Origin: a virus
Taxonomy: Duplodnaviria > Heunggongvirae > Uroviricota > Caudoviricetes
Length of the DNA stretch: 64,000 nucleotides
IMG/VR virus record: IMGVR_UViG_3300032245_001763
Coordinates: 1 to 64,000 of that record
Strand: one strand, 5' to 3'
The notes beneath the pieces are model-generated. The model had not been told where the DNA came from and searched no databases. It worked only from the letters and a program-made list of their open reading frames with translations. Shown here piece by piece: positions 49,606 through 64,000 of this stretch (position 1 is the first letter of the stretch; the number at the start of each line of letters is the position of its first letter). Position numbers and translations under genes: made by a program.

Positions 49606-50189
49606 AAATTGGATATAAAGCTACCTACGACTATATTTGCAGAGATCATAAATTTGAAATAGGTCAATCTTATGAATTACAAGGAACACCAATTCCTTGC
49701 GTTTATGGATTTCACTATTGTCAAAATCCAATCGATGTTTTACATTATTATCCAATTCAACATGATTTCCGTCTATTAGAAATCGAAGATATTGGCGAAT
49801 CAATTACTCAAGGTAATAAATCAGTAACAAATAAGATCCGTATTATTCGTGAAGTTCCAAAGGAAGAATATTACCAGCTATTTGGTGTTGTTAATAATAA
49901 ACTGACAATAAGTGCTGGTATATTTGGTGCTTGGGAAAGACGAACATTTGATGAAAATAACAATGAAATTTTTTATCAAAATTCAGATGGTAATTGGGAA
50001 AAACGTGAATATGATGAAAGAAATAATTGTATTTATTATGCAACTTTATCTGGGTTTTGGATAAAACGTGAATATGATGAAAGAAATAACGAAGTTCGTT
50101 TTGAAAATTCAAGTGGTTTTTGGATAAAACAAACATTTGATAAAAATAATCGTAGAATTAATTATGAATCTAATTATGACAAAGTTTGA
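49602..50189 (+). CDS. GFHYC-domain plus MORN-variant repeat family protein
   Basis: MKIGYKATYDYICRDHKFEIGQSYELQGTPIPCVYGFHYC. Confidence 0.65.
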   Translation: MKIGYKATYDYICRDHKFEIGQSYELQGTPIPCVYGFHYCQNPIDVLHYYPIQHDFRLLEIEDIGESITQGNKSVTNKIRIIREVPKEEYYQLFGVVNNKLTISAGIFGAWERRTFDENNNEIFYQNSDGNWEKREYDERNNCIYYATLSGFWIKREYDERNNEVRFENSSGFWIKQTFDKNNRRINYESNYDKV

Positions 50190-50244
50190 TTGTACAATGT
50201 TCTTTGGAGGAATTATTTTGAACGTTTAGATTGAAAGAGCTAAA

Positions 50245-50889: not shown

Positions 50890-51482
50890 TAAAAAGCCAA
50901 CATCTTACAATAAGATGTTGGCTTTTTTTAAGGATTATTATGATTAATTTTAAATTAATTTCTGATTCAATTGATTTTTATTCTAAATATTCTTTTGTTA
51001 GAATAGAAACACCTTGGATTGTTCCGTCTTATATAGACAATATTACTAAGCCAAAAGATGCTATTCCATTTTCTTTAAATAATAAAGATGCTAGATTGGT
51101 TGGCTCAGGTGAGCAAAGTTTTTTGCTTCAATATATGAATGGATATCTGCCAAAAGGCAAATTTCAAACTGTTACACCTTGTTTTAGAGAAGAAAATCTT
51201 GATTTTCTTCATAGAAATTATTTTATTAAAAATGAATTAATTCAAACTTGTGATGTTAACGAATCTAATTTAAAAATAATTGTTTCTATTTGTTTTGATT
51301 TTTATAATCAATATTTAAATGGTAAAGCTGAAATTTTAAAAACTAATGAAGGTTATGATATAACTTTTAATGGAATAGAATTGGGATCTTATGGAATAAG
51401 AAGTTGTGATTTTTTAGATTGGATTTATGCAACAGGATGTGCGGAACCAAGATTAAGTTCTATTTTAAATTTAAAGGAGTAA
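50886..51482 (+). CDS. Class II aminoacyl-tRNA-synthetase-like catalytic core (PheS/PylS-like class IIc), truncated to 198 aa
   Basis: A motif-2-like FQTVTPCFREENLDFLHRNYFIKNELIQ (compare PheS R.E....H...F.Q.E) and a motif-3-like GIELGSYGIRS. Confidence 0.35.
   Translation: MIKSQHLTIRCWLFLRIIMINFKLISDSIDFYSKYSFVRIETPWIVPSYIDNITKPKDAIPFSLNNKDARLVGSGEQSFLLQYMNGYLPKGKFQTVTPCFREENLDFLHRNYFIKNELIQTCDVNESNLKIIVSICFDFYNQYLNGKAEILKTNEGYDITFNGIELGSYGIRSCDFLDWIYATGCAEPRLSSILNLKE
50891..50930 (+). terminator. Rho-independent terminator (AAAAGCCAACATCTTA/TAAGATGTTGGCTTTT plus T-run)
   Basis: Perfect 16-bp stem followed by TTTTTTTA. Confidence 0.65.
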
Positions 51483-51484
51483 TT

Positions 51485-51742
51485 ATGGGATATCATCTTT
51501 CAACAATACCAAAAGGTATTGTTGGTGAATTTTCTAAAATTGAAGAAGAATTTTTTGAAGCTAAAGATGCATCTATGCAAAACGATTCTGTTTTAATGTT
51601 AGTTGAATTATCAGATATGATTGGTGCAATAGAAGAATATGTTAAAAAATGGAATATGTCTATTGATGATTTAAAGAGTTTTTCAGATAAAACTAAATTA
51701 GCCTTTAAGGATGGAACGAGAGTTTCTAAACAATCTCTATAA
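51485..51742 (+). CDS. putative MazG-like all-alpha nucleotide pyrophosphohydrolase
   Basis: EFSKIEEEFFEAKD...LVELSDMIGAIEEYVKKW carries the paired EExxE/ExxD helices. Start moved to ATG 51485 after the upstream stop. Confidence 0.3.
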   Translation: MGYHLSTIPKGIVGEFSKIEEEFFEAKDASMQNDSVLMLVELSDMIGAIEEYVKKWNMSIDDLKSFSDKTKLAFKDGTRVSKQSL

Positions 51743-53000
51743 AATTTTCTTTTTTCAAAACATCTTTTATAAAGTCAAGATATCTATCAGCAGTTTTTTC
51801 CCAAATATTTTCTTGTATATATTTGTTGTTTAATGATATTAAATTGTTTTTATAATTATGATCTGAAAATATTTTATCAATTTCTTTTGAAAGTTCTTCA
51901 GCACTGCTTGGTCTGGGTACAACATTATTTAAATCATCAAACATATTGCTTTCTGATGTTATTACTGGTATTTGGTTTGCCATTGCAACACGCACCGCAC
52001 CAGATGCTCCGTAAACAATATTATTTGGATTAGTTACATAAGGAAATAATGCTAATTTTGCTGTTCTTAAATAATTGTTAATTATTTCGTCTGAATTATA
52101 TTTTCTTATAATTGCTATATTGTCATATAAGTTAAATTTTTCAATAATTGATTCAAGATAATTTTGGTATTCAGCATGTGTTCCAACTGCATTTGCTGAT
52201 TCAGAGCAAAGATAACAATAAAATATATCTTTGTATTTTTCTGGAAATTTATTTTTTAATATTCCTACTGCTTCAATTGCCCTATCTACACCTTTGTAGA
52301 AAAATCCAAAACCAAATTGTACTATTGCATATGGTGTTTGGAAAGTATTCCACAATTCTTTTACATCGTTAAATTCTACACAACCATGAGGTATAACACG
52401 TATTAAATTATTGGTGTGTCCAAGGTTTTCAAGAGCACCTTTTCCAGAATTAGAATGAACAATAATATTTTTTGCTACAGATGTGAATATTGTTTTATCC
52501 ATGTGAGATTTATACACAGAATGTAAAACAATAGCATATGGAATATTTTCTAATTCTTGAATAAACTTCAAATAATGGGTGGCTTTTGGAAATATTCCAA
52601 ATTCATGCTGAATAATTACAAAATTTGGCTTCCAATCTTTTATTTCTTTTGAAAGATTTTTTAAAGTTTCACCTCTTACCCAGCATCTTGAAACATTTTC
52701 TTCAACATCATGTGATAAATCAGCTTTTTCTTCAATTTCTGAAAATATTTTTATTTCATTTACTTTAGATCTAAGTGCGTCAACCAAATATTTTGAATAT
52801 GTAGAAATTCCACAAGGAGTTCTCCAATTACATACAACTGCAATTTTCATTTTTTCTGGACTCATTGTACCTATTCTTTTTCCAATAATATTTTCTTCTA
52901 CATTATCTACTTTGTACAAATTATCTAAATTTGATACTTGAACTTCTCTATCAAATACACCTTTAATACGATCATTGTTATCAGTAAATATATACTTCAT
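51726..53000 (-). CDS. Glycosyltransferase, GT4-like (GT-B fold)
   Basis: C-terminal FPYVTNPNNIVYGASGAVRVAMANQIPVITSE resembles the GT4 E..G..l.EAma.G.PvI motif. Confidence 0.45.
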   Translation of the reverse strand: MKYIFTDNNDRIKGVFDREVQVSNLDNLYKVDNVEENIIGKRIGTMSPEKMKIAVVCNWRTPCGISTYSKYLVDALRSKVNEIKIFSEIEEKADLSHDVEENVSRCWVRGETLKNLSKEIKDWKPNFVIIQHEFGIFPKATHYLKFIQELENIPYAIVLHSVYKSHMDKTIFTSVAKNIIVHSNSGKGALENLGHTNNLIRVIPHGCVEFNDVKELWNTFQTPYAIVQFGFGFFYKGVDRAIEAVGILKNKFPEKYKDIFYCYLCSESANAVGTHAEYQNYLESIIEKFNLYDNIAIIRKYNSDEIINNYLRTAKLALFPYVTNPNNIVYGASGAVRVAMANQIPVITSESNMFDDLNNVVPRPSSAEELSKEIDKIFSDHNYKNNLISLNNKYIQENIWEKTADRYLDFIKDVLKKENFIEIV

Positions 53001-53055
53001 ATTGTATAACTTTCTTTATTATTTGTTGAAATAATAGAGTTAATTAATTAAGATT

Positions 53056-54513
53056 TTAAGATTTATTCTTTATTCCAGCTTTAATTGCATTTAAAGCTGT
53101 CGCTGTCCAAGCGTTTGATGTTTCGGGATTTGCATCAAATGCCTCTACATTATATGGTGTTGTTGATTGTAAAATTCCAGTAACAGTCTTGTTCGATCCA
53201 ATCTCATTACCGTTCATTACAAATTTAACAGTACCAGTCACGCCAGATTGAGCTTCAGTAAACAGAGAATTGAATTGAACGCCTTTAACATCATTGATTG
53301 TTGACAAATTTGACATGTTAAATTGTGCCAAATCACCATTAGTGTTTGAGGTAATAAATTTACTTAACGTACTGTGAGTCTGACTCATATCTCTAGCAGA
53401 CAAGGAGCCTGTATAATCTAATGATAAATCATCAATATAAATAGCAGATCCTGTTGCAAGTGGACCAAATCTAATTACTGATTGAGGCGTTAATGAATAT
53501 GTGAATTGTTGATAAGTTGTTGTTAAATTTAAAGTGTTTGTTGTTCCATTTATGATTATTGGAAAAGTTGAAGTTGATGCACTTCTAGCCCAAAACGACA
53601 TTGATACTGCATCTGTTGTAAATTCCATCCATACAGAAGTGTTATTAAAAGCAAGACAGGCTGGAGAAGTACGAAAACTGCTTGTTGATCTTGCAATATA
53701 TCTAAAATTGAAAGCTGTCTCATTTAAATAGCTAATATTTGTAACTCCAAGAGGAATTAAAAATTCATGTGGATCAGTAAATGTTGCATCAAATGATGTT
53801 GATAATACAGTTCCATTGCTGTTTGTGAAATTTACTGTATCATCAGTTGTTGGCGATAACATTTCAATTCTTGGAATATACAACTCTGTTCCAATTTTTG
53901 CATTATTTCTTGTTCCTGTATTATCAACGACATAAAAGTCATCGACTCGATATTCGCTGTTTCCAGCAATATAGAGTGTGAAAGTACCATCATAATTCAT
54001 TGATGTGCTACTTGTCCCGCGTTCAGTTCCATCAACATAAAGTCTAATTGGAGTTCCGGCAGATGGAGTAATCGGAATTAATAATTCAATGTGTCTCCAG
54101 GTATTTGCAAGTCCAGAGTATGGTGTTGAATAAACTGCAACTGAATTTAAGCTAAATCTATAATCAAGACTGTTAATTAGAATTCTCAATCCCTTTGTCG
54201 TGTCAGTTGGAGTTGAATTAGTCAATCTAATATCAATGTTACTTTCTTGACTTCCAAATCTCAGATTAAATCCAACAACAAAATAAGTTACACCAGAAGA
54301 AGAAACTGCTTTTTTTAATTGTCCTGGATTTTTACCTGGAACAACAGATGCAGAGTTTCCGCCAAATCTTCCAGGTTTAGCAATCCAAGAGCCAGCAACA
54401 GTATTAAAATTTCTTGCCAGTCCAGTAGTAATTGAATCAGTTGGATCATTTCCTGCCGTGTTTAATGCGTAATGTCCGTAATTTTCAAATCCTTCTAAAA
54501 ACCTAATTGCCAT
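53056..54513 (-). CDS. Large structural (fibre/receptor-binding-like) protein, paralogue of 57715-59499
   Basis: The N-termini MAIRFLEGFENYGHY and MGIIFFDSFDHYTHH are alike. Both are S/T/N-rich with a beta-rich composition. Confidence 0.45.
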   Translation of the reverse strand: MAIRFLEGFENYGHYALNTAGNDPTDSITTGLARNFNTVAGSWIAKPGRFGGNSASVVPGKNPGQLKKAVSSSGVTYFVVGFNLRFGSQESNIDIRLTNSTPTDTTKGLRILINSLDYRFSLNSVAVYSTPYSGLANTWRHIELLIPITPSAGTPIRLYVDGTERGTSSTSMNYDGTFTLYIAGNSEYRVDDFYVVDNTGTRNNAKIGTELYIPRIEMLSPTTDDTVNFTNSNGTVLSTSFDATFTDPHEFLIPLGVTNISYLNETAFNFRYIARSTSSFRTSPACLAFNNTSVWMEFTTDAVSMSFWARSASTSTFPIIINGTTNTLNLTTTYQQFTYSLTPQSVIRFGPLATGSAIYIDDLSLDYTGSLSARDMSQTHSTLSKFITSNTNGDLAQFNMSNLSTINDVKGVQFNSLFTEAQSGVTGTVKFVMNGNEIGSNKTVTGILQSTTPYNVEAFDANPETSNAWTATALNAIKAGIKNKS

Positions 54514-55129
54514 TGTTTATACTCCAATCACTGTAGCCAGCGTAATCTGAATTCCATAATGTCTTTAATTTGTTTTCTCTTTCTGTTGTCCATAGTTCGT
54601 TTGCTTGATTGTCTGTACTTCCAATTTCTGGATAAGCAATTGCAGGATTGACCCATGTGCCAGTAATTGGAGTAAAGTAATCAAGGAAATCAAGATTAAT
54701 ACCATTCAATTGATTTCTGTAATGGCTTTGAGATCTATAGAAATGAACAACTTCATTGCCTATTAATTTGTGCATCGGGCAAAACACATTGGGAATGACT
54801 GGATTATTTTCTAACAGAAAAGGATTACTTTCATTTGCTGTCAAAAAATCTAAATAAGAATCAATTGATTCCCAGTATTTTTGATATCCAGAATCATACA
54901 TTTCTTTTGATGCAGCATACATTGAACAAAGTCTATCCCAAGGATGACGTTTTGATACATATACATGTGTATATTCAATATTGTTTAATTCTGAAATATC
55001 GCAACTATGTCGATGAGATCCTAATCTGTAATTATCAGGATCATGTAAATCTAAATATTGTTCAGTTGATCTGCTCGCTGTTCTTTCAACAGGGCAGTAT
55101 ACTATTTTTAAATTTGGGTAATATATCAT
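54503..55129 (-). CDS. Sulfotransferase-family protein
   Basis: A 3'-PB-like KRHPWDRLCS (R.P.DR..S) and an N-terminal YCPVERTASRS (5'-PSB-like). Confidence 0.45.
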   Translation of the reverse strand: MIYYPNLKIVYCPVERTASRSTEQYLDLHDPDNYRLGSHRHSCDISELNNIEYTHVYVSKRHPWDRLCSMYAASKEMYDSGYQKYWESIDSYLDFLTANESNPFLLENNPVIPNVFCPMHKLIGNEVVHFYRSQSHYRNQLNGINLDFLDYFTPITGTWVNPAIAYPEIGSTDNQANELWTTERENKLKTLWNSDYAGYSDWSINNGN

Positions 55130-55136
55130 ATTTTAT

Positions 55137-56069
55137 TTATTCCTCTAAAATTTCTAAACAAAAAATTTCTAAATTATTTTTAGCAAATATTGCATCTTTT
55201 CCATAAAGAAAAAATTCATCATTGTGTTTTAGTGTTTTATTGTATCCTTTAACTTGTGTTGTTTGAGTTATTGCTATATTTTCATCAACATTATTTTTCT
55301 TAAAATTAACTTTAAATTTTATTTTTGGATTAATTCCATTTTTTTCGTGTTCAGATATATAGTTGAATATAATGGGATTCCCGTTAAGTGGAAGTTGAGA
55401 TGTTACTGATATTTCTGATTCACCTTGATAAAAAGGAATATATTTAAATTCATATATTTTAGTATCATTATATGATATATTTTTAATATTTTCAAATTTT
55501 GCATTTTTATCACTTGATTTTAATTCAAATTCTACAGTTTGATTAGTTTCAAATGTTATTCTAAAATCAGTTAAATAATAACCATTATTTTGACCACCTG
55601 TGAAATAATAATTTATTTCACCATTATCTATCTTTGATATAGATAATCCAGATAATATTAAATTTCCAGAACTTAATGCTAAAAAACTTTGTTGTGAATT
55701 TGATAAAATCAAACTTATATTGCTTAAACCAGATAATAGTAAACTACCAGAACTATAACTATTATAGTTTTGTTTTATAATAGAATCACCAGATAATATT
55801 AAACTACCAGAACTATAATTATTATAGTTTTGTTTTATGATAGAATCACCAGATAATATTAAACTACCAGAACTATAATTATTATAGTTTTGTTTTATGA
55901 TAGAATCACCAGATAATATTAAACTACCAGAAGGGGTGAAATTCTCATTAAATGGAGGAACATAATCGGTTCCAAGGACATAAATTGAATTTTGGTATAA
56001 ATTTAAATTTATAGGTTGTTGTTCAACTGCTCCAAGGACATAAATTGAATTTTGATATAAATTTATCAT
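55137..56069 (-). CDS. Repeat-containing structural protein (tandem SGSLILSGDSIIKQNYNNYS repeats)
   Basis: Three perfect 60-bp DNA repeats at 55741-55920, plus a duplicated N-terminal INLYQNSIYVLG segment. Confidence 0.5.
   Translation of the reverse strand: MINLYQNSIYVLGAVEQQPINLNLYQNSIYVLGTDYVPPFNENFTPSGSLILSGDSIIKQNYNNYSSGSLILSGDSIIKQNYNNYSSGSLILSGDSIIKQNYNSYSSGSLLLSGLSNISLILSNSQQSFLALSSGNLILSGLSISKIDNGEINYYFTGGQNNGYYLTDFRITFETNQTVEFELKSSDKNAKFENIKNISYNDTKIYEFKYIPFYQGESEISVTSQLPLNGNPIIFNYISEHEKNGINPKIKFKVNFKKNNVDENIAITQTTQVKGYNKTLKHNDEFFLYGKDAIFAKNNLEIFCLEILEE
55741..55920 (-). repeat. Three perfect 60-bp tandem repeats in a coding region
   Basis: AACTACCAGAACTATAATTATTATAGTTTTGTTTTATGATAGAATCACCAGATAATATTA repeated three times. 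A fourth, diverged copy lies upstream. Confidence 0.8.
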
Positions 56070-56096
56070 AAACTATTTATGAAATTTTTAATAAAC

Positions 56097-57116
56097 TTAT
56101 TTATTAAATTTAATTTTAATTGTTTCATCTTGAATAAATTTATTCCAATATTCATGTTCTTTGTGTTTTTGAATATTTGTCAATTCATTAATTTTATTTT
56201 TTAAAATTCTATTATCAAAATTCCAATATGAAATAGAATTATTAGATTTTCCTATTACATTAAGAAAAGATTCATTTTTGCTATGATGTGTTAGATCAAT
56301 AAAATTAGTTCCAGTTACATAACTAAAAATGCTTGAATGTAATCTTGAACTAATTGTTAAATCGCATGCCGAAATGATATCTAACGCATTTGAATAAGAT
56401 ATTTTATCATAAATTACATGATTTTTTTTCCAAAATTTACATTTAGAGGCAATCCAAGAATTAGATGCTCTATCATCGTTTGGTACTTGAGTGCTGAATG
56501 GTATAAAAATGAAACTAGCAGGTGTTTCATCAATTGTTTTTGCAATATCATAACTAAATTTCATAAAGTTAAAAACATCTCTTGAAAGTGAATCAGATGA
56601 TGAATGACTCATATAACTGTTAATTATTACAGCTATTTTTTTAGAATATAAATCTAAATCATTTTTTTTGAACATTTCATTTATGATTTTTGTTCCATTT
56701 ATTGGATTGCCTGATAAAGTTAACGCAGAATCTGGTATAAAAGTACAATTAATGTTTTTACTTTTTAATATATCAATTGTTCTGTAATCTCTTGCATAAA
56801 TGTGTTCAAAAATATATAAATCATCTATATTTTCTTCTTCTATGCCAACAGAATATGCATAAATTTTTTTATTTTTTACTTTTTTTAATTCATTAATATA
56901 ATGTTTTCTTAAAACGTTACCTCCACCTAATAACACAACTTCACTTTTGTTAATCAATTCTTCATTTAATTGATTAACAAAAGTGAAGTTGTGTTGTGGA
57001 AATAAGTTTTTAAAAGTATCTTTATATGTTTCGTCACCATGATTTGATTTATCATAAAAACCTAATGTTAACACTTCCATGATAAATCCTTTATTGTTTA
57101 ATATTTCACCATCCAA
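56097..57116 (-). CDS. Putative polysaccharide pyruvyl transferase-like protein
   Basis: N-terminal LTLGFYDKSNHGDETY...VVLLGGGNVL resembles the CsaB/PS_pyruv_trans N-terminus. Confidence 0.3.
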   Translation of the reverse strand: MDGEILNNKGFIMEVLTLGFYDKSNHGDETYKDTFKNLFPQHNFTFVNQLNEELINKSEVVLLGGGNVLRKHYINELKKVKNKKIYAYSVGIEEENIDDLYIFEHIYARDYRTIDILKSKNINCTFIPDSALTLSGNPINGTKIINEMFKKNDLDLYSKKIAVIINSYMSHSSSDSLSRDVFNFMKFSYDIAKTIDETPASFIFIPFSTQVPNDDRASNSWIASKCKFWKKNHVIYDKISYSNALDIISACDLTISSRLHSSIFSYVTGTNFIDLTHHSKNESFLNVIGKSNNSISYWNFDNRILKNKINELTNIQKHKEHEYWNKFIQDETIKIKFNK

Positions 57117-57370
57117 TTTATTTTACACTTACTGCTTTTTATATTCGTGAAAAATATAAATCCTTTTTTGGTCAAAATGTATCCAAAAGCGTCTATTTTA
57201 TTTTGTCCACAGCCACTATATTTTCCACTTTTTGTATTTATCCAAATAGATTTTGGATTTCTTTTTAATTTTATTAAAATGTTATTATGTTTGCCTTGAG
57301 CTAACTCAAAGCTTCCATATTCTTTTTTTAATATATAAGCTAATATCGTTTTCCATATTGATTTAAACAT
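57098..57370 (-). CDS. small protein, paralogue of 57383-57670
   Basis: Shared C-termini SKCKINWMVKY and DSCKISWLAFK, and internal CG...KI..FGY/GC. Confidence 0.45.
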   Translation of the reverse strand: MFKSIWKTILAYILKKEYGSFELAQGKHNNILIKLKRNPKSIWINTKSGKYSGCGQNKIDAFGYILTKKGFIFFTNIKSSKCKINWMVKY

Positions 57371-57382
57371 TTTTAATTCCTT

Positions 57383-57670
57383 TTATTTAAAAGCTAACCA
57401 ACTTATTTTGCATGAGTCAGTTTCAATTTCTGCTTCAAAAATTAATTGATTTTTGATTAATGTACATCCTATTTTATTAACTGGTATATTTCCACAACCA
57501 TCTGCCACAGATTCTTCTGTAGATGTCCAAACTTTTTCTGGATCTATTTCTGTTGTAACAACAAATTTGTGATTTCCACGAGATAATTCAAATTCACCTG
57601 TTTCAAATCCAATTATTCTACCAAAAAATTTTGCTAAAGTATTATTTACTCTACTAACTATTTGTCCCAT
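57383..57670 (-). CDS. small protein, paralogue of 57098-57370
   Basis: ORF track, 95 aa. Confidence 0.45.
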   Translation of the reverse strand: MGQIVSRVNNTLAKFFGRIIGFETGEFELSRGNHKFVVTTEIDPEKVWTSTEESVADGCGNIPVNKIGCTLIKNQLIFEAEIETDSCKISWLAFK

Positions 57671-57714
57671 TTTTTTCCTTACTCACTTAAAAGTTTTTTT
57701 GTTTAACTATCTAT

Positions 57715-59499
57715 TTAAATTCCTATTAAAAAATTAAATTTAATTACTCCAAATACGCTGGAGCCAGATACATTCATGCTATCAGAGTATAATGAAGTTC
57801 CAGTATCATAATTTATTGATGTAAATTCAGTATTTTTATAATAAAAAGCATTTCCAGTAGAATTTCCATTATACCCATTTACACTAGTCCACGCAGATGT
57901 GTTTGTAACATTTAAATTATTTCCATTACCCAAAATAATTCTTAATGGTCTAATTGTGTAACATTTTTCACTTGTTCCTCCAAATGTATATTCAAAATTA
58001 CCAAAAGGAGCAGAATTTGAATCTGGTTCAGAACCATTTGGAATATCATAAGTAATTTTGCTTGATGTTATGAAAAGCATTGATGCGTCATTTCCTGTAG
58101 AAACTAACATTGTATTATTTTCATTTCCATTTAATGTTCGTTTAAAAACACGATAATATATGGAACCAGCAATTCCACTATCTATTTGATCCCATTCGTT
58201 TTCGTTTACTGTTGGTACACTACTTTGTTTTTTAACTAATAAGTAAGCTGTATACCCAGAATTCATTTTGGATGAATCTGGTGCTGGAAAATATAAATCT
58301 TGTGTTAATTTTGCATCAACATGTGTGATATTAATTGAATAATCTTTAGAAATATATCCTAATTCTAAATTATTTATATTAACAACATCCCAAGGATTAT
58401 TGTCAGATGGATTTAAAGAAAATATATTTGAGTTTAAAGTTCCTAATTTTTCTATTGCTCCACTTGATTTTTCATAATTTAATTCTCCAATTGATTTATA
58501 ATTAGGACCAAACTCGATGTTATCTTTTATTAATCTAAAACATGAGTGTCCAGATTCGCCATTTGGCCAAGTATATAAATTGTAATAATTATTTGTGGTT
58601 GCTGATAATATAACTGGTTTTATTGCTCCAACTACTTGAATTTTCTGTAAATTGTTTATTTCATACAATGATGACACATTAGTTGCATTTGTATATACAT
58701 ATTGTGTTTCATTATGTGGTATATTATCTTGAGATTGTGCCCCTATAGCTGGATGAGTATTTTTTTTAATCATATTAACGGTTTTATCTTTGAATGCAAA
58801 TAAAGTTTCAATACGAACTAATGGTCCTAAAAAATCATTGAAACTTGCACCCAAATTATCTAATAGATATAGATCATCAATTAACCATCCAGAATCATTA
58901 TGGTCAGTACTTGTTGATTCTTGTCCTATTCCAAATGTTCTATTTAGTGTTTCGTTAATATCTTCAAGAAATAATGCTTCTGGTGAGATTATATAATCGT
59001 CAATTCCGTCAATTCTTATTTGCCAAGGTTGGCTTGGGTGTGATATTTGAATTTTAACTTCTAAATGATGCCAATTACCATCATCCGAAATTGTGGTTAA
59101 ATAAGTTTCTGAAGTTCTTGATGTGATATATAAGTCATTTCCAGATAGTTTAATTCCTTTGTGTATTCCCGTGTTATCTTTAAATCCTATTAATGTTGGA
59201 CTTCCGCTTTTATATTTTTTTATTTGACATCCTATAATTAGTTGTACAACTCCACTGTTTGGAATATTTACTGATATTGATTTGTCTAAAAATGTATTTG
59301 AAGTATAAGTTGGCGGAACATAAAATCCATTTAATAGAAGAGCACATGAAGAGTTTCTTCCTGCGAATAATTTTGGACCATTAGTTAAATTTTTATAAGC
59401 TTCTATATTTGGTAAAGAATATTCTCTTGCCAATTCTTCGTATACATATCCTCCATGATGTGTGTAATGATCAAAACTGTCAAAAAATATAATTCCCAT
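57715..59499 (-). CDS. Large structural (fibre/receptor-binding-like) protein, paralogue of 53056-54513
   Basis: 594 aa, N/S/T/G-rich; conserved N-terminal 25 aa. Confidence 0.45.
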   Translation of the reverse strand: MGIIFFDSFDHYTHHGGYVYEELAREYSLPNIEAYKNLTNGPKLFAGRNSSCALLLNGFYVPPTYTSNTFLDKSISVNIPNSGVVQLIIGCQIKKYKSGSPTLIGFKDNTGIHKGIKLSGNDLYITSRTSETYLTTISDDGNWHHLEVKIQISHPSQPWQIRIDGIDDYIISPEALFLEDINETLNRTFGIGQESTSTDHNDSGWLIDDLYLLDNLGASFNDFLGPLVRIETLFAFKDKTVNMIKKNTHPAIGAQSQDNIPHNETQYVYTNATNVSSLYEINNLQKIQVVGAIKPVILSATTNNYYNLYTWPNGESGHSCFRLIKDNIEFGPNYKSIGELNYEKSSGAIEKLGTLNSNIFSLNPSDNNPWDVVNINNLELGYISKDYSINITHVDAKLTQDLYFPAPDSSKMNSGYTAYLLVKKQSSVPTVNENEWDQIDSGIAGSIYYRVFKRTLNGNENNTMLVSTGNDASMLFITSSKITYDIPNGSEPDSNSAPFGNFEYTFGGTSEKCYTIRPLRIILGNGNNLNVTNTSAWTSVNGYNGNSTGNAFYYKNTEFTSINYDTGTSLYSDSMNVSGSSVFGVIKFNFLIGI

Positions 59500-59512
59500 A
59501 ATTTTCCTAATT

Positions 59513-60364
59513 TTAAATAAATTTTATTGTTTTATTTTTAATATTTAAATTTTCAATTATATTTATGGTTTCATTTTTATTATTGATATTTTCTTTAAAA
59601 GAAAGTGTTTTCTCTTCTAGATCTTTTATTGTAAAACATTGAGTTTTATAAAATATTTTATAAAACTCAATTAATTCTTCTCTGTGTCGTTCTGGAATAG
59701 CACATAAAACTATATTTGTATTGACTTTTAAAGCGCCAGCTAAATGCGATAATCCAGAATCTATTCCTGTAAATGAATAGCAATTTATCATTTTTTGTGC
59801 TATTTCTTTTATTGAAGAGCAAATTTCAAATGGATATTCTTGCAAATATATTTTTGTGTTTGGACCACCAATTCCTACTGGAACTTGATTTTTTGAAAAT
59901 GTTTCTATGATATATTTCATTTCATTTTGTGTAAATAATCTTTTTTGATTTGGATGTATAGATCTTGAATCGAATTGGAAGTAACATATATCATTTTTTT
60001 GTAAATCTGGTTTAATTTTAATGGATGGTAGTTTTATTTCTTTGATTCTTTTTCCATTTGGATTAAATTCTGTTCGAAACATATGTTTCATGTTTAGAAA
60101 CGCCACCTGCGCCTGATTCCATCTTAATGGACCTCTTCTATATTGTGGCATGATTTGAGAAATTGAATTTCCTGTATAATTTGTTGTTGTTTCTCCACAA
60201 TATCTTAAATTATGAAAATCAAAAATTTCAAATAATTCTTCAGTAAATTTATTTCCATATATTTTTATAATCCAATTATTTTCTATAGCTCTATTGTAAG
60301 CTAATATTAATATAGCTACATAGTCTCCCAAATGTGCCTTATTGTCTATAATAAACGTTTCCAT
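59513..60364 (-). CDS. Glycosyltransferase family 9 (heptosyltransferase-like)
   Basis: FTGIDSGLSHLAGALKVNTNIVL matches the GT9 D.G..HLAaA.g.P.v.LfG motif. Confidence 0.5.
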   Translation of the reverse strand: METFIIDNKAHLGDYVAILILAYNRAIENNWIIKIYGNKFTEELFEIFDFHNLRYCGETTTNYTGNSISQIMPQYRRGPLRWNQAQVAFLNMKHMFRTEFNPNGKRIKEIKLPSIKIKPDLQKNDICYFQFDSRSIHPNQKRLFTQNEMKYIIETFSKNQVPVGIGGPNTKIYLQEYPFEICSSIKEIAQKMINCYSFTGIDSGLSHLAGALKVNTNIVLCAIPERHREELIEFYKIFYKTQCFTIKDLEEKTLSFKENINNKNETINIIENLNIKNKTIKFI

Positions 60365-60366
60365 AA

Positions 60367-61245
60367 TTATTTCTTAATTAATTTATAATCTATGAAATTG
60401 ATAGACATTTGAAATTCCGGAAAATCATTAAATCCTATTTTATTTTTTATTAAATTAGATATTTTTTCACTTTTGAAAAAATCTTCAGGCTTTTCTGTTA
60501 TTTCAATTCTTTCATTTATTATAAATCCAGAATTTCTAATATATTCTTCATATGTTCTAATTGGTCTTGTTGGTCCATTATTTTGAATAAAATCATCATT
60601 ATTTAAAAATTGTAATAATTCATCATTATTTAATACTAAATGGGCATAAGCTTTATTTAATTTATGATAACAATGTATGGCACTTCTTGATGTATAAGGA
60701 TGGAATCTTACGTATAATCTACCATTTTTTTTCATTATAGAGTTTATTTTTTTTAAAACATCTTCTGGATTTTCATTTATTAAGTGATCTAACACATCAA
60801 ACAATAAGACAACATCATATTCTTCATGGTTTTTTATTTTTTCAAAATCTGTTGTGAAATTTTCATTATTCCAAGATTCATGATGTTTTATATCGTATCC
60901 AATTGCAATTTTAGCACCAGATTTTAATGCTGGATCTATTGTGTATCCATCTCCACAACCATAATCTAAAAAATTTAAATCTTTTAAATTTTCTTCAATA
61001 TAATTATGAACTATATTACATCCTCTTTCTTTTTTTTCATTCAAATCAGAAGGATGTATTAAAAGCTCAGATTTAACTGCTTCTGGCCAATCTTCAGATT
61101 TGATTAAATCAATTATTGATATGTTGTTTAAATAATTAAATTTTTGATAATTATTATTTTTTATTTCAGTTAATAATTCCAATATTTGATTGTTTAAATT
61201 TACGCTGGTGTTTAATAATTGTTTTAGTTTATTTTCTATATTCAT
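60367..61245 (-). CDS. SAM-dependent methyltransferase (class I)
   Basis: Motif I FLDYGCGDGY, an acidic residue at the end of beta2 (GYDIKHHE), and VVLLFDVLDHL (motif II/III-like). Confidence 0.55.
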   Translation of the reverse strand: MNIENKLKQLLNTSVNLNNQILELLTEIKNNNYQKFNYLNNISIIDLIKSEDWPEAVKSELLIHPSDLNEKKERGCNIVHNYIEENLKDLNFLDYGCGDGYTIDPALKSGAKIAIGYDIKHHESWNNENFTTDFEKIKNHEEYDVVLLFDVLDHLINENPEDVLKKINSIMKKNGRLYVRFHPYTSRSAIHCYHKLNKAYAHLVLNNDELLQFLNNDDFIQNNGPTRPIRTYEEYIRNSGFIINERIEITEKPEDFFKSEKISNLIKNKIGFNDFPEFQMSINFIDYKLIKK

Positions 61246-61967
61246 AGATATCCATATTTATTTATTGTATTTAAAAAATCTTTTTTTATGCTTCCATTTG
61301 GAATATCTTTTATTTTAAAATCTTCTATTCTTTTATTAATTGTATTTACATTATTTGGTAAATTTATTTCTGTTTTTTCTTTATTTATAAATTTGAAAAA
61401 ATATAAATTATTTGTAATGTTTTCAATTTTACAAATAATTGTATTATCTTTGTTGGATTTTTTTTCAATTAAATTATTCCAATTTACATAATAATAACAC
61501 GCACGTTCGATCGGATTGTTTATTTTTTTTAATTCTGGTAGTGTTTCAAAAATCTTTTGTTCCCATTCATTATTTGGATTTGAATCATTGAAATAATTTA
61601 GACTTTTTAAAAAAGAACTAATTACTTTGATTGGATTTCGAACAATATGTATAATTTTAACATGATTTAATATTACCATGTTTAAATAAGGTGCAGCCAT
61701 ATAGCTTGAATCAGCAATAGTTTTTTCGGCGTCTACCCATTGTTCTAATTCTTCATATATTTCACTCTTTAATTCTAAATTGTGTGTTGAACAAAAACTT
61801 AATTTTCTTAAATGTGGATGATATATTTTTTTTATGATTTTATCTAAAGGTTCGAAATCAAATATACACTCATGTCCACATGGAATATCTAATTTTGTTA
61901 ACATTTTTGCTACAAAATTAGTACCACAACGACCAGTTCCAGTTACTATGTATTGTAAATTATTCAT
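61242..61967 (-). CDS. Sulfotransferase-family protein
   Basis: A 5'-PSB-like IVTGTGRCGTNFV and a 3'-PB-like IIHIVRNPIKVISS. Confidence 0.45.
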   Translation of the reverse strand: MNNLQYIVTGTGRCGTNFVAKMLTKLDIPCGHECIFDFEPLDKIIKKIYHPHLRKLSFCSTHNLELKSEIYEELEQWVDAEKTIADSSYMAAPYLNMVILNHVKIIHIVRNPIKVISSFLKSLNYFNDSNPNNEWEQKIFETLPELKKINNPIERACYYYVNWNNLIEKKSNKDNTIICKIENITNNLYFFKFINKEKTEINLPNNVNTINKRIEDFKIKDIPNGSIKKDFLNTINKYGYL

Positions 61968-62017
61968 TTTTACCTTTAACTAAGTTGATTATTTTTGAAT
62001 GATACTATAATATAATT

Positions 62018-63079
62018 ATGTATGATATTCAATTTATAATACCAATTTCAGCTTCAAAAGAAATTTATAAAACAAGAATTAATTCTTTAAAAAAATATGG
62101 AATACTAAATGTAAAAAACAACAAAGTGTTATTAACGTTGTTGGTAGGAACAGAAACTATTCCAGATTTGGACAAAGATTGGAATCCAAATATTACAGTT
62201 GAATGTATTCCTTCTGTTTATAATTATCATGCACAAAAAATTTATGATTATTTATCTTCATTAAAGTCTGTTAAGGCTAAATGGATTGCTAAAATTGACG
62301 ATGATAGTTTTAATGATGTTGACTCTTTGATTTCCAATTTAGAAACTCATTTTCAAGATTCTAATTGTTATATTTGCAGTTGTATTAACAATGTAGATCA
62401 TATTATAGAAAAAAATCTTTTAATAGAATCGGGTTATAGTAAATTTTTAACTCCAAGAAATACACTCTGGCATGAGTGGGAAGCTTCTTTTTTATCAAAA
62501 AAATCTTTAGAGAAAATTATTTCTTGCGAAGACGCAATGCTTTTGATGAAAAAAAGAAGTAAGATATCATCTGGTGTTACAGATGCTTGTTTTGCATATG
62601 CTGCAAAAATTGCAGGAATTCATCCTGTTGATTGTCACTTTTCCACAAAAGAACCATTAATAGCTCATTTTAGTTATTTTGGTGGAGTTTATAGTCATAT
62701 ACATTATATGTATTCTTCATGTTCAGATAATGCAAGAGAAAAAGCAGGAGTTGACGCTCATTTATTTGCAAGCAAAATTTTGGATGAAAAATATGATAAA
62801 TTTAATTATAATAAATTAATTGATAAACAATACGTTTTTTGTGATCAATATGATAGAGTTATATCTCTTTTAACTTTTAAAGAATTTGGTCTTGTAAAAA
62901 ACAATAATCATGAAAATGAATCTTTATGGCTTGTTGATGATAAACATTTAGAATTTTATAATACTAAAGGTACTTTAATTAGTAGATTTATGTTTGAAGA
63001 TGTTGAATTAAATAAAATGAAAGGTTGGTTGTTAACTAAGCCAGAAAATATTCTTTATTTGAAAAGAGTAATTGCATGA
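62018..63079 (+). CDS. Hypothetical protein, possible glycosyltransferase-like (DxD)
   Basis: AKIDDDSFNDVD contains an acidic DxD-like triplet; otherwise unassigned. Confidence 0.35.
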   Translation: MYDIQFIIPISASKEIYKTRINSLKKYGILNVKNNKVLLTLLVGTETIPDLDKDWNPNITVECIPSVYNYHAQKIYDYLSSLKSVKAKWIAKIDDDSFNDVDSLISNLETHFQDSNCYICSCINNVDHIIEKNLLIESGYSKFLTPRNTLWHEWEASFLSKKSLEKIISCEDAMLLMKKRSKISSGVTDACFAYAAKIAGIHPVDCHFSTKEPLIAHFSYFGGVYSHIHYMYSSCSDNAREKAGVDAHLFASKILDEKYDKFNYNKLIDKQYVFCDQYDRVISLLTFKEFGLVKNNNHENESLWLVDDKHLEFYNTKGTLISRFMFEDVELNKMKGWLLTKPENILYLKRVIA

Positions 63080-63888
63080 AAATTTCAGTACTAGTTAACA
63101 CACATGAATGTGACATTTTTTTAGACACAATTGATTCAATTAGAACTTATGTATCTAATGATATATTAACTGTTGTCGATGCCAAAAATTGGGATAGTTG
63201 GGGAGAAAATTTACCTCAAGATATAAATGCAATAAAAGGTTTTTATCATGGTTACAATAAGGCACCATATAAAAATTATACATATGGATTAAAAAAAATA
63301 TATGAAAAATATCCTGATTCTGATTGGTATTGTTATTGTGAACCAGATGTGATTTTTGCTTCAGATAAATTTAAAAAAGTATTATCTGAAGATGATTCTG
63401 TTTGGATGTATGGAAATGATTTGAGATATTATGATAAAATTAAATTTCCTTTTTTGGAAAATATGCTAAATATCAAATTTAATATAACTTCTTATTTTTT
63501 AGGATGTTGTTTATTTTTTAATAAAATTTTTATAAAAAAACTTAATGAAATTAATTTTTTTGATACTTTTTTAAAAGAAGTATCCATTTTTAAAAATGGA
63601 TACTTCCCAGATTGTGATGAACAAAATGTTTATGATATTGGTGAAAATTTATATCCAACATTAGCGTTTCATTTAGGCGGAAAATTAAAACAATTTGCAT
63701 GTTGGAACCAAACTTTTAATCATTGGACTGGTAATTTTAAAGAATATCCTATGAGATGGAGACCCGAATTGACTTTTGAAGACAATTATCCAGAAGCATG
63801 TATTTTACATCCAGTGAAAAACACATCTGGATTAAGACAATTTCATAAAACTTTAAGAAAGAGAAAAAATGTTGCAAAATATGTCTAG
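63076..63888 (+). CDS. hypothetical protein (possible glycan-modification enzyme by context)
   Basis: ATGA overlap with the upstream gene; genomic context only. Confidence 0.35.
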   Translation: MKISVLVNTHECDIFLDTIDSIRTYVSNDILTVVDAKNWDSWGENLPQDINAIKGFYHGYNKAPYKNYTYGLKKIYEKYPDSDWYCYCEPDVIFASDKFKKVLSEDDSVWMYGNDLRYYDKIKFPFLENMLNIKFNITSYFLGCCLFFNKIFIKKLNEINFFDTFLKEVSIFKNGYFPDCDEQNVYDIGENLYPTLAFHLGGKLKQFACWNQTFNHWTGNFKEYPMRWRPELTFEDNYPEACILHPVKNTSGLRQFHKTLRKRKNVAKYV

Positions 63889-64000
63889 TAAGTTCTTTTT
63901 TTATGTAATAGATTTAGAAAAAAAAGATGAATTTATAAAAAAATTTGTTGAATTTAATTCATTTTTAAATGAAGATGATGGTGTTTACTTAATAAATGAA

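Follow-up and report, generated by a model that had tools for sequence, protein, structure and literature searches.

A variable glycan-tailoring island with sulfotransferases, a pyruvyl transferase and lectin-like virion genes in a T4-like megaphage

The window, the 64,000-nucleotide stretch of DNA analysed here, derives from a ~530-kb T4-like 'megaphage' with a variable 12-kb glycan-tailoring island. A block of glycan-, sulfo- and pyruvyl-transferring enzymes is combined in it with inserted lectin-like virion genes, and an acidic glycan connected with the particle or with host recognition is therefore probably made or remodelled by the phage. The coordinates and strands of all ORFs noted between 51.7 and 64 kb of the window in a preliminary description were confirmed (Table 1), and its proposal of a phage glycan-enzyme cluster was borne out by the assignments of glycosyltransferases, a pyruvyl transferase, a methyltransferase and sulfotransferases. 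The rarity of sulfotransferase motifs in phages suggested there was also upheld. Both the sulfotransferases and the pyruvyl transferase are almost absent from sequenced phages: across 50,697 GenBank phage records, the pyruvyl transferase had a single tblastn match (LR756511.1) and neither sulfotransferase matched any record.

The window is part of a 530.8-kb contig with T4-type capsid genes. Positions 44503–55834 were 100 % identical to the 530,789-bp contig L002, and positions 59642–64000 were 100 % identical to contig L001, which extends past the window end. The Gp23 major capsid protein (PF07068) and S77 prohead protease (PF03420) were both found on L002, as a T4-like phage requires, and Portal_T4 was detected in the relative L029 only. 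On one flank the island borders tRNA, aaRS-like, HNH and DUF7666 genes; on the other, NAD-salvage genes. All 11 of its minus-strand genes lie close together, separated by ≤55 bp and in some cases overlapping, as would fit co-transcription. The T4-type late-promoter core ATAAATA was found ≤45 nt upstream of 3 of the 11 island genes (ST2, Rep310 and the methyltransferase) compared with 3 of 99 genes elsewhere in the window, a weak, post hoc count, and also upstream of Gp23 and P0001, a relative of Str485. Beyond the window, the 136-aa ORF that starts there is followed by a GT2 gene (254 aa; PF00535, E 2.7e-13). No transmembrane segment was detected in 13 complete island ORFs or in any L001 or L035 ORF of ≥50 aa, and the related contigs L031 and L032 had nothing similar to a flippase, polymerase, ligase or initiating phosphoglycosyl transferase. 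By itself, the island therefore offers no path to the cell surface.

Table 1. Features of the glycan-tailoring island, in window coordinates
Feature	Position	Strand	Basis or remark
GT-B glycosyltransferase, Glycos_transf_1, 'GT4-like', 424 aa	51726..53000	-	Pfam PF00534
Str485, lectin-like (ConA/LamG) three-domain virion-module protein	53056..54513	-	phrog_2448/6368 family
ST2_208, sulfotransferase-fold protein	54503..55129	-	Fold and conserved residues; start/stop-coupled to Str485
Rep310, repeat protein	55137..56069	-	N-terminal NLYQNSIYVLG x2, then 20-aa repeats, C-terminal domain
60-bp tandem repeat	55728..55932		TRF: 3.4 copies, 97% matches
Polysaccharide pyruvyl transferase, CsaB/WcaK type	56097..57080	-	PF04230
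sm90, small protein, sm95 paralogue	57098..57370	-	Pairwise match
sm95, small protein, sm90 paralogue	57383..57670	-	Pairwise match
Str594, second lectin-like member, long unique C-terminal part	57715..59499	-	phrog_2448, E 3e-14
Possible GT-B (GT9-like) transferase	59513..60364	-	PF01075, below threshold
Class I SAM-dependent methyltransferase	60367..61245	-	Methyltransf_23, E 9e-15
ST1_241, sulfotransferase	61242..61967	-	PF00685
Probable GT-A transferase, Fringe/GT31-like, DDD motif	62018..63079	+	Weak Pfam matches
Conserved island protein, possibly GT-A, C-E-x-D motif	63076..63888	+	Homologues in relatives
Start of 136-aa ORF	63869..64000	+	Runs off window end

Among the glycan enzymes, the GT4-like call was supported by a Glycos_transf_1 match above the gathering score (E 8e-8; 32.4 bits, gathering score 26.4). 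Its homologue in L031 is 63 % identical and lies directly after the pyruvyl transferase. The EX7E position, placed by eye, reads YGASGAVRVAMA here and FGASGAIRIAMA in the L031 homologue, and the canonical glutamates appear to be replaced in both (Y/F...V/I). The pyruvyl-transferase-like call (ORF 56097–57116) was sustained by a match to PS_pyruv_trans at E 1.9e-18 and 67.8 bits (gathering score 25.3), spanning 240 of 280 profile positions. The NCBIfam CsaB model TIGR03609 was matched at E 2.8e-13, but matches to the CsaB and WcaK equivalog models did not reach the cut-offs (49.9 compared with 213), so the protein is a family member and not a CsaB or WcaK orthologue. Its start is probably the ATG at 57080, giving 327 aa and matching the call in public assemblies, which removes the overlap with sm90. 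The L031 homologue is 53 % identical. The methyltransferase assignment likewise agreed with the earlier one, and homologues of this gene (37–39 %) adjoin ST1 in L032 and L035. By contrast, the GT9-like call is unproven, because its match to PF01075 (E 0.023, 14.4 bits) falls below the gathering score of 22; this match covers only 31 residues of the nucleotide-sugar-binding segment, and no homologue was found in L031, L032 or L035. The two plus-strand genes had both been described as putative glycan enzymes. The first is weakly Fringe/GT31-like (Fringe E 0.008, Galactosyl_T E 0.021), as is its 32 % L031 homologue, again by a weak Fringe match, whereas the second has no significant domain match, only a weak profile match to a chondroitin synthase GT domain (E 0.075). 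Homologues of the second gene are present in L031, L032 and L035 at 47–53 %.

Both sulfotransferase calls survived profile and fold tests, ST2_208 by fold and residues and below the Pfam threshold, and neither ORF was reassigned to an unrelated P-loop family, the check proposed in the preliminary description. ST1_241 matched Sulfotransfer_1 at 29.6 bits (E 6e-7, gathering score 22), and Sulfotransfer_3 at E 1.4e-5, under that model's gathering score. It has 187 homologues, and in 31 aligned sequences the invariant residues G10-T11-G12-R13, G15, R110, P112, V115 and S118 make up the motifs TGTGRxG and RxPxxVxxS. Under the usual definitions of the 5'-PSB and 3'-PB motifs, these comprise a P-loop-like 5'-PSB motif and a 3'-PB arginine with a serine eight residues on. 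In PDB, the top profile matches were to the OLS and CurM sulfotransferase domains, at their 3'-PB motif. The invariant residues H32 and E33 are candidates for the catalytic base. As judged from sequence, ST1_241 is a member of the PAPS-dependent sulfotransferase superfamily; no gene for PAPS synthesis turned up in the genome portions examined. In two Planctomycetota genomes, bacterial ST1 homologues adjoin a UDP-galactopyranose mutase gene. For ST2_208, the match to Sulfotransfer_2 was 14.2 bits (E 0.049), below the gathering score of 22; a similarly weak match was obtained for 10 of 20 ST2 relatives (best E 0.021), and no sulfotransferase was returned by a PDB sequence profile search. The protein nevertheless passes the sulfotransferase-fold test, and R16-T17-A18-S19-R20-S21, R61-H62-P63 and S69 are invariant in 20 sequences. 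Residues of both the 5'-PSB and the 3'-PB are thus conserved, with an R to S spacing of 8 in the latter, and the invariant histidines H29, H41 and H129 are candidates for the catalytic base.

The enzyme core recurs without structural genes in three other phage contigs (L031, L032 and L035), which are huge-phage contigs; the core is common to all four and accessory genes differ in each. Because it is conserved there without them, the core does not need structural genes in cis. The interleaving of enzyme and structural genes described earlier is therefore present here but genome-specific. Further genes in the relatives are nucleotide-sugar genes of the sort usual in polysaccharide loci (GLF, CTP_transf_3, PMM and RmlD-like). 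In L032 a CMP-sugar synthetase-type gene is paired with an MptE-like gene (PF01973, which we take to be the family including the Maf flagellin glycosyltransferases), and this pairing hints at protein glycosylation. In L031 and L032 a tandem pair of the sm90/sm95 type precedes the pyruvyl transferase gene on its upstream side, and one copy was found in L035, at the end of the stretch examined. The small paralogue pair reported at 57098–57670 was confirmed, sm90 and sm95 being 32 % identical (E 3e-16), with G25, F27, G32, H34, W48, G58-C59, F78 and W91 invariant (sm95 numbering). No match to sm95 was found in PDB or Pfam.

The two large ORFs are paralogous over their N-terminal ~250 aa (24 % identity, E 2e-6). 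Str485 and Str594 matched phrog_2448 at E 2e-16 and 3e-14, compared with E 1e-50 for a typical 341-aa member, and their C-terminal domain matched phrog_6368. This phage tail-module family is widespread, and the profile search recovered 3937 representatives; Str594 is absent from L031, L032 and L035. Both large proteins are globular and built of three beta-sandwich domains, the N-terminal one being of the ConA/LamG lectin type. Of the paralogous fibre-like structural proteins proposed earlier, the paralogy and the phage tail-module family thus stand, whereas a fibre-like identity is ruled out by this globular lectin-like architecture. The N-domain suggests that the Str proteins bind glycans and are not evident carriers of them. 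N-x-S/T sequons show no enrichment (13 compared with ~10 expected in one protein and 15 compared with ~11 in the other). A position of phrog_2448 proteins in the virion is putative, based on synteny with tape-measure and tail-fibre genes and on one database label, 'virion structural protein', carried by a single structural relative of the large ORFs in BFVD; none of the solved phage structures contains this family. The N-terminal ConA/LamG domain is common to Str485, Str594 and the phrog_2448/LamG-type proteins of Chi-like Casjensviridae and Caulobacter/Brevundimonas siphophages, and the C-terminal NP-x-TS-x-x-WT domain is also shared with the small-phage members. The latter (~340 aa) are encoded between tape-measure and tail-fibre genes, without a sulfotransferase. 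The megaphage versions, in contrast, add domains (a middle beta-sandwich in Str485, a unique C-terminus of ~200 aa in Str594), are located close to head genes or within the glycan island, and are paired with a sulfotransferase.

In all six contexts examined, ST2 was directly upstream of a Str-family gene with stop and start overlapping or abutting. These contexts lie inside virion gene blocks, 2.5–7 kb from Portal_T4, the S77 protease or Gp23, or beside large tail proteins. Since ST2 is fixed inside a structural operon, a virion-related substrate is the simplest account. The virion block with ST2-Str also keeps a conserved Glyco_trans_1_3 glycosyltransferase 1.5–3 kb downstream. Rep310-ST2_208-Str485 is a conserved unit whose usual place is the virion gene block. 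Here a duplicate of the unit is inserted between the pyruvyl transferase and the glycosyltransferase, and because these two genes are directly adjacent in L031, the insertion is a clean one. Str485 is 60 % identical to P0001, which remains beside the capsid genes, and ≤42 % identical to others; the unit in the island is a lineage-specific duplicate relocated into the enzyme island. The N- and C-terminal parts of Rep310 occur as separate ORFs flanking ST2-Str in L027, L029 and L060. Within Rep310, the 60-bp array was found to contain two identical units, one unit with two mismatches and a partial unit, rather than the three perfect repeats first reported. Two public assemblies end inside the array, at window positions 55834 and 55808, and the Rep310 product is 290 aa in another assembly compared with 310 aa here; copy number thus appears variable between assemblies, as had been anticipated.

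Decoration of virion proteins with an acidic glycan is tentatively favoured over remodelling of a host-surface glycan. The soluble island enzymes would act in the cytoplasm of the infected cell, assembling a glycan that would be made acidic (pyruvate ketal, sulfate ester) and methylated. A virion-associated protein would be the acceptor, the best candidates being the S/T/N-rich repeat protein and the lectin-like proteins, singly or together, and ST2, translationally coupled to the lectin-like gene, may act on that virion component. The particle would then bear a self-made anionic glycan coat affecting adsorption or shielding. The locking of ST2-Str into structural blocks and the movement of its duplicate into the island argue for virion decoration, as do the Glyco_trans_1_3 gene kept in the same block, the lack of membrane proteins, the L032 gene pair, the Megavirinae and mycobacteriophage precedents and, weakly, the ATAAATA count. 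Conservation of the core without structural genes argues against it, as do the resemblance of the Str proteins to glycan binders or glycanases rather than typical acceptors, the apparent replacement of the EX7E glutamates, the unenriched sequons, the putative status of phrog_2448 proteins as virion components and the lack of a PAPS-synthesis gene in the genome portions examined. The classical substrates of CsaB/WcaK-type pyruvyl transferases and of GT2/GT4 enzymes are lipid-linked polysaccharide precursors, which also counts against virion decoration. Remodelling of the host surface is possible, if somewhat doubtful. The soluble enzymes would hijack a host lipid-linked O-antigen, capsule or cell-wall polymer pathway, and the added sugars, pyruvate, sulfate and methyl groups would stop infected cells or debris from binding this or competing phages, the benefit being superinfection exclusion or the prevention of progeny loss. 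The lectin-like virion proteins of the island would recognise the same glycan, with receptor binding and editing co-evolving. The equivalent 'host recognition cluster' (HRC) of T4-like pelagimyophages and cyanomyophages, a mixture of tail-fibre genes, glycosyltransferases and LPS genes, has been interpreted in this way (PMC7029224). Host-surface remodelling is in keeping with the independent conservation of the enzyme core, the GLF, CTP_transf_3, PMM and RmlD-like genes of the relatives, the nearness of the pyruvyl transferase to CsaB and WcaK, the Planctomycetota ST1 homologues beside UDP-galactopyranose mutase, and the lectin/CBM fold of the Str proteins, which suits binding of such a glycan. 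However, with no flippase, polymerase, ligase, initiating transferase or membrane protein in the island or its relatives, the modified units would need to be tolerated by the machinery of the host. The locking of ST2 to a virion-module gene in 6/6 structural-block contexts is left unexplained, and a strictly lytic megaphage would be expected to profit less from seroconversion than a temperate phage.

It is unlikely that two unrelated modules were joined by insertion and that the interleaving is a recombination accident in a plastic region, with ST2 serving the lectin-like protein alone (by sulfating it or its ligand, or as an assembly factor) and the remaining enzymes doing something else. The clean insertion between genes adjacent in L031, the absence of Str594 and the GT9-like gene from relatives, and the HNH endonuclease and repeated DUF7666 genes at the flanks, typical of plastic regions, would fit such an origin, but random placement would scatter the two independent lectin-like paralogues found in one island, and the tight packing of the 11 minus-strand genes fits co-transcription. 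Hypermodification of DNA, in which glycosyltransferases and tailoring enzymes decorate modified phage bases, is highly improbable. The glucosyl-hmC of T4 is a glycosylated modified DNA base, and the capsid genes here are T4-type. Phage glycosyltransferases are also described as hypermodifying DNA with diverse glycans (bioRxiv 10.1101/2023.12.21.572611). Yet neither the island nor its immediate surroundings contain a dCMP/dUMP hydroxymethylase, TET/5mYOX or DNA methyltransferase. The pyruvyl transferase belongs to the polysaccharide type, the GT-A resembles Fringe, and the genes with which the island is associated are those for lectin-like virion proteins and, in relatives, GLF and CMP-sugar genes.

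The island is akin to known phage host-recognition/glycan islands and to giant-virus glycosylation clusters. The seroconverting O-antigen modules (Gtr and Oac types) of temperate phages alter the host surface glycan that is the phage receptor, and Gtr systems depend on membrane proteins, the GtrA flippase and polytopic GtrC. They are alike in being phage genes for glycan alteration, whereas the island has no membrane protein and the window no lysogeny genes. These modules are reviewed in Markine-Goriaynoff 2004, as cited in PMC7029224. The HRC and the island are both hypervariable islands in phages with T4-type structural genes, mix recognition or virion genes with glycosyltransferases and other polysaccharide genes, and have gene content that is poorly conserved among relatives (PMC7029224). 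The HRC sits between VrlC and gp14, in the structural module with tail-fibre genes, whereas the island lies outside the structural block, between tRNA/aaRS-like/HNH and NAD-salvage genes, and carries lectin-like phrog_2448 proteins and no recognisable tail-fibre gene. It also has two sulfotransferases and a pyruvyl transferase, neither word occurring in PMC7029224 ('sulfotransferase', 0 occurrences), in a genome about three times larger than those of the HRC phages.

Capsid and tail glycosylation is also reported in mycobacteriophages (Freeman et al. 2023, cited in PMC12619734). Cytoplasmic phage glycosyltransferases encoded near structural genes likewise modify capsid and tail proteins there; these phages have only one to a few glycosyltransferases and no sulfo-, pyruvyl- or methyl-transferases, infect actinobacteria, and use the C-termini of capsid and tail-tube proteins as acceptors, whereas the candidates here are lectin-like and repeat proteins. 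The fibril glycosylation gene clusters of the Megavirinae (Mimivirus, Moumouvirus and Tupanvirus) are virus-encoded and host-independent (PMC10117803). In the Mimivirus cluster, several glycosyltransferases are accompanied by a pyruvyl transferase and by a methyltransferase acting on sugar (L143, R132), the Moumouvirus cluster includes the sulfotransferase ma461, and Megavirinae clusters pair a sulfotransferase with SAT/APS kinase (PMC10117803). They contain full nucleotide-sugar pathways and SAT/APS kinase, whereas the window has neither and its relatives have GLF, PMM and CMP-sugar genes; their fibril glycans were shown chemically, whereas the glycan here is predicted from genes. The Megavirinae are eukaryotic giant viruses and the likeness is one of gene content: in both, glycosyltransferases are combined with a pyruvyl transferase/methyltransferase or a sulfotransferase, and the proposed role is decoration of virion surface proteins.

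The island comprises eleven ORFs on the minus strand (51726-61967) and two on the plus strand (62018-63888), overlapping or with gaps of at most 55 bp, in the arrangement given by the preliminary description. Its GT4-like, pyruvyl-transferase-like and methyltransferase calls were borne out by Pfam matches over curated thresholds (see table), with CsaB and WcaK the closest NCBIfam models for the pyruvyl transferase. The GT9-like call scored 14.4 bits against a threshold of 22, below the cut-off, and is unproven, as is the putative Fringe-like assignment (E 0.008). The 270-aa ORF contained a mere hint of a GT-A DxD-type segment, and its profile had no significant match in PDB; the two plus-strand ORFs, compared with each other, are not paralogues. 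Past the end of the window, the island closes with a GT2 gene followed by NAD-salvage genes (CinA-NMNAT, AAA_28 and PRPP synthase). An ADP-heptose pathway, formed by a 363-aa CTP_transf_like protein and the GT9-like protein, was rejected, since the former is a CinA+NMNAT fusion near AAA_28 and PRPP synthase, indicating NAD salvage. No transmembrane segments were found in the 13 complete island ORFs tested or in any ORF of 50 aa or longer from L001 (a stretch of the window's genome) and L035 (a relative contig), and no polytopic membrane proteins in the relative contigs L031 and L032.

Features of the window and of related sequences (L002, a stretch of the window's genome; L029-L032, relative contigs; L033 and L039, bacterial contexts of ST1)
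Feature	Sequence	Position	Strand	Remarks
31 tRNA genes	window	1181-22509	+	loose clusters; duplicates include Asn x4, Lys x3
tRNA predictions	window	3012-3085; 7534-7604		abnormal two-base anticodon calls
DUF7666 family	window	17588-18436; 19050-20111; 48901-49605; 49602-50189		multi-copy; DUF7666 N-terminal, then RHS/YD-like repeats
63-bp tandem repeat	window	50000-50130		within DUF7666 family
DUF4379 protein	window	22899-24116		405 aa; four treble-clef zinc-finger repeats (E 4.5e-61)
DUF1501 protein	window	40228-41547		full length (E 2e-86)
DUF1501 paralogue	L002	7909-9189		34%; beside capsid-proximal Str copy
Class II aminoacyl-tRNA-synthetase-like ORF	window	50886-51482		short, 198 aa; tRNA-synt_2 (E 9e-6); HNH endonuclease adjoining
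Glycos_transf_1	window	51726-53000	-	above Pfam curated threshold
Str485, large lectin-like paralogue	window	53056-54513	-	
ST2_208, sulfotransferase fold	window	54503-55129	-	below Pfam threshold
Rep310, repeat protein	window	55137-56069	-	
PS_pyruv_trans	window	56097-57116	-	above Pfam curated threshold
sm90, small paralogue	window	57098-57370	-	
sm95, small paralogue	window	57383-57670	-	
Str594, large lectin-like paralogue	window	57715-59499	-	
Methyltransf_23	window	60367-61245	-	above Pfam curated threshold
Sulfotransfer_1 (ST1_241)	window	61242-61967	-	above Pfam curated threshold
270-aa protein	window	63076-63888	+	
Intein in T4-type portal gene	L029	1-1997		Intein_splicing + Portal_T4
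TnpB/Cas12f-like ORFs	L029	12615-13022; 17247-18410		within structural block
336-aa ORF, Glyco_trans_1_3, metallophosphatase, SpoU-type methylase	L002	11688-15338		conserved structural-block run
Same run	L029	13691-17081		
Same run	L030	13229-16619		
UDP-galactopyranose mutase	L033	6940-8103		Planctomycetota; adjoins ST1-family gene
UDP-galactopyranose mutase	L039	8824-10059		Planctomycetota; adjoins ST1-family gene
UDP-galactopyranose mutase	L031	5469-6569		phage island
UDP-galactopyranose mutase	L032	12812-13903		phage island

The small paralogues sm90 and sm95 (90-95 aa) matched no known family, and their profile had no significant match in PDB. Residues G25, F27, G32, H34, W48, G58-C59, F78 and W91 (sm95 numbering) were invariant among them and their homologues in L031, L032 and L035. 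In L031 and L032, too, a tandem pair lies 5' of the pyruvyl transferase gene, and one copy was found in L035; these proteins could be a subunit, carrier or acceptor for that enzyme.

The source is a very large phage carrying T4-type head genes. Window 44503-55834 was 100% identical to the initial 11,332 bases of a metagenomic contig of 530,789 bp (ERZ28594238 scaffold_3), and this contig also encodes a T4-type prohead protease (Peptidase_S77) and the Gp23 major capsid protein at 255-276 kb. ST1_241 is likewise on record from a contig of this length. The 530.8-kb contig and a Logan contig, public assemblies independent of each other, both break inside the 60-bp tandem repeat (window 55808-55834); the contig 'end' is therefore an assembly break and does not mark the end of the genome, which is probably circularly permuted or complete. 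The window is rich in AT (GC 0.23-0.32), with mostly small ORFs on the plus strand. Its genes use all three stop codons, and under the standard code (code 11) 83% of the sequence is coding, which rules out stop-codon recoding of the kind seen in Lak-type megaphages and indicates that the table 11 ORF calls are sound. Outside the island, the DUF7666 region at 48.9-50.2 kb had 75-78% DNA-level similarity to about 28.5-29.5 kb, and a fragment of the DUF1501 protein occurs in L029 at the place that the paralogue has in the window's genome. Near the aminoacyl-tRNA-synthetase-like ORF, at 46-49 kb, are ORFs matching PTH2 (peptidyl-tRNA hydrolase) and, weakly, YqeY, a translation-related set that is usual for huge phages.

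Both sulfotransferase calls stand, as profile, motif and fold evidence did not assign either protein to another P-loop family. In the ST1 family (187 homologues), G10-T11-G12-R13, G15, R110, P112, V115 and S118 were invariant across 31 aligned sequences. The Pfam match of the ST2 protein itself fell below the threshold (E 0.049). Nevertheless three independent lines support it: Sulfotransfer_2 gave the same weak match in 10 of 20 relatives; R16-T17-A18-S19-R20-S21 and R61-H62-P63...S69 were invariant in the ST2 family, with the Arg-to-Ser spacing the same as in ST1; and the fold search matched sulfotransferases unanimously, including both protein-tyrosine and carbohydrate sulfotransferases. 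A match of the ST2 family profile to a Dicer-related helicase domain in PDB (E 2e-4) was judged spurious because of this unanimity, and PDB searches with the single ST1 and ST2 sequences returned only noise. The two proteins are not paralogues of each other.

The preliminary description held sulfotransferase motifs to be uncommon in phage genomes, and no relative of either protein was detected by tblastn in 50,697 GenBank phage records. In the same records the pyruvyl transferase matched only LR756511.1, a 595-kb uncultured phage with nothing else in common with the island in the flanks of that gene, and a megablast search of GenBank phages with the 12-kb region gave no match. IMG/VR scans with Str485 or ST1 as single proteins were likewise empty, and relatives were recovered there solely by an alignment-based scan. 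The bacterial relatives of ST1 (at most 39% identity) were mainly from Planctomycetota, and in two of these genomes a UDP-galactopyranose mutase gene adjoins the ST1-family gene, which supports a putative carbohydrate-related role for ST1 and hints at a galactofuranose-containing substrate. The mutase is also encoded in two phage islands.

Homologues of ST2 formed 20 clusters at 45-59% identity. All six retrievable contexts were examined (the window, L003/L004, L027/L028, L029/L030, the contig of the family member P0170, and L060), the L027/L028 contigs being 242-316 kb in length. In every one, ST2 lies directly 5' of a Str-family gene with stop and start overlapping or abutting, the partner on the P0170 contig being judged by size only. 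In L027-L030 the S77 protease and Gp23 genes precede the pair by 2.5-7 kb, and Portal_T4 is also present in L029; in L003 and L060 the pair is surrounded by large tail-type genes, PhageMin_Tail being one of them. Parts of Rep310 occur alongside the pair: a 90-aa ORF upstream of it in L029 corresponds to the C-terminal domain, and ORFs downstream of it in L027 and L060 correspond to the N-terminal NLYQ motif region. These structural blocks also retain, a few genes further downstream, a Glyco_trans_1_3 glycosyltransferase. In the genome that contains the window, P0001, a relative of Str485, occupies the syntenic capsid-proximal site, with no ST2 beside it. P0001 and Str485 were 60% identical, and neither exceeded 43% identity with any further member, which makes this a lineage-specific duplication.

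For expression signals, the T4 late-promoter octamer TATAAATA was not enriched (20 found, 19.8 expected). The motif ATAAATA precedes ST2, Rep310 and the methyltransferase (3/11 island genes versus 3/99 elsewhere in the window, p = 0.013) as well as Gp23 and P0001, a weak signal identified post-hoc.

Str485 and Str594 have about 250 N-terminal residues in common and both match phrog_2448, a function-unassigned family for which an exhaustive profile search gave 3,937 cluster representatives, mostly of about 340 aa and composed of the N-domain and a C-terminal domain of about 100 aa. On small phage contigs these genes lie 3' of those for the tape measure, tail proteins and tail fibres, and two to four paralogues often stand in tandem. 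In GenBank the family was found in 172 phages (Chi-like Casjensviridae, Caulobacter, Brevundimonas and others), annotated solely as hypothetical and located between the tape measure and distal tail genes. BFVD matches of the Str proteins belonged to the same phage family, one being labelled 'virion structural protein', and no solved phage structure contains it. The large paralogues, previously regarded as fibre-like, are thus globular, lectin-like proteins rather than fibres, and by synteny they are probably associated with the tail or virion. Rep310 is the more fibre-like element, since its relatives also bear Gly/Ser-rich repeats. N-x-S/T sequons were not significantly enriched in the structural proteins. 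The 60-bp tandem array is real but does not consist of three perfect units as had been claimed; it has two identical units, one with two mismatches and a partial unit. The repeat-protein product is 290 aa in another assembly and 310 aa in the window, and two public assemblies break inside the array, from which a difference in copy number between assemblies was inferred.

The enzyme core was also found in L031 (135 kb), L032 (57 kb) and L035 (546 kb, GC 36.5%). It consists of the sm95/sm90 pair followed by the pyruvyl transferase (53%) and a GT-B gene (63%), directly adjacent in L031; ST1 (40-45%) adjoining the methyltransferase (37-39%) in L032 and L035; and, divergent from ST1, the Fringe-like gene, the 270-aa protein (47-53%), a small ORF and GT2 (46-48%). 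Accessory genes in the relatives were UDP-galactopyranose mutase, a CTP_transf_3 cytidylyltransferase, PMM, an RmlD-like reductase, an MptE-like protein and further GT2s. Rep310, ST2, Str485, Str594 and the GT9-like gene were all absent from the fetched stretches (within 8 kb of ST1 on both sides in L035, and within 10 kb in L031 and L032). The interleaving in the window therefore arose secondarily, when virion-block genes were inserted into a variable glycan island that already existed, and the enzyme island is older than the INTERLEAVING. The contig L035 (CALFYV010000090.1, 546,147 bp), whose island includes the methyltransferase, ST1, the 270-aa protein, GT2, x125 and sm95, was deposited in an 'uncultured Bacteriovoracaceae' MAG. 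It is probably a phage contig and likely a mis-binned megaphage, or alternatively its deposition is possibly a clue to the host.

The island enzymes would act in the cytoplasm, upon an acceptor present there. We tentatively favour virion-associated proteins as this acceptor, because a sulfotransferase and a glycosyltransferase are fixed in structural operons, the island has been joined by a duplicated virion unit and it has no export machinery. In Megavirinae, virion fibrils are decorated by virus-encoded clusters with the same tailoring chemistry (PMC10117803), and glycosylation of capsid and tail proteins by mycobacteriophages is described by Freeman 2023, as cited in PMC12619734. The main rival is that the enzymes edit the lipid-linked surface polysaccharide of the host and block co-infection, with the lectin-like proteins as matching receptor binders, which is how the analogous host recognition clusters in pelagimyophages and cyanomyophages have been read (PMC7029224). 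The independence of the enzyme core from structural genes, the polysaccharide-type pyruvyl transferase and GT families and the lectin fold of the Str proteins all speak for host-surface editing, which is possible, if somewhat doubtful.

A further reading is that ST2 and its lectin-like partner constitute a dedicated virion-sulfation system, with the adjacent Str protein, the repeat protein or a glycan on either as the target. Pairing in all six contexts, invariant PAPS motifs and fold matches to protein-tyrosine and carbohydrate sulfotransferases are compatible with this, and we consider it rather unlikely. It is unlikely that enzymes and virion genes were interleaved by accident, and hypermodification of DNA is a very remote explanation. 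If virion sulfation were true, it would represent the first sulfated phage particle and a hitherto unrecognised phage post-translational modification, and in the megaphage the system would have merged with a larger glycan-tailoring island to give a pyruvylated, sulfated anionic coat. Sulfated or pyruvylated virions would offer a new view of adsorption, aggregation and sticking to mucus or particles in very large phages.

The sulfotransferase fixed beside a lectin-like virion-module gene across several huge-phage lineages is a testable enzyme-partner pair, and the enzyme core with and without inserted virion genes is a natural experiment separating virion decoration from host-surface editing. 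A fold and context are also now given for phrog_2448, with about 4,000 representatives annotated as hypothetical. Virus-made glycans are established for eukaryotic giant viruses and a few mycobacteriophages. Large aquatic T4-like phages commonly carry 'LPS gene' islands, to which, to our knowledge, no target has ever been assigned. Sulfation, pyruvylation and methylation as phage tailoring had no report in the literature or GenBank phage records searched; what is new here is that a phage has this tailoring chemistry, together with the conserved sulfotransferase/lectin-like pair and the documented merger of pair and island. The locus would work like the host-recognition and glycan islands of T4-like myophages, but without their positional definition, and like the glycosylation clusters of giant viruses, from which it differs in host range and completeness.
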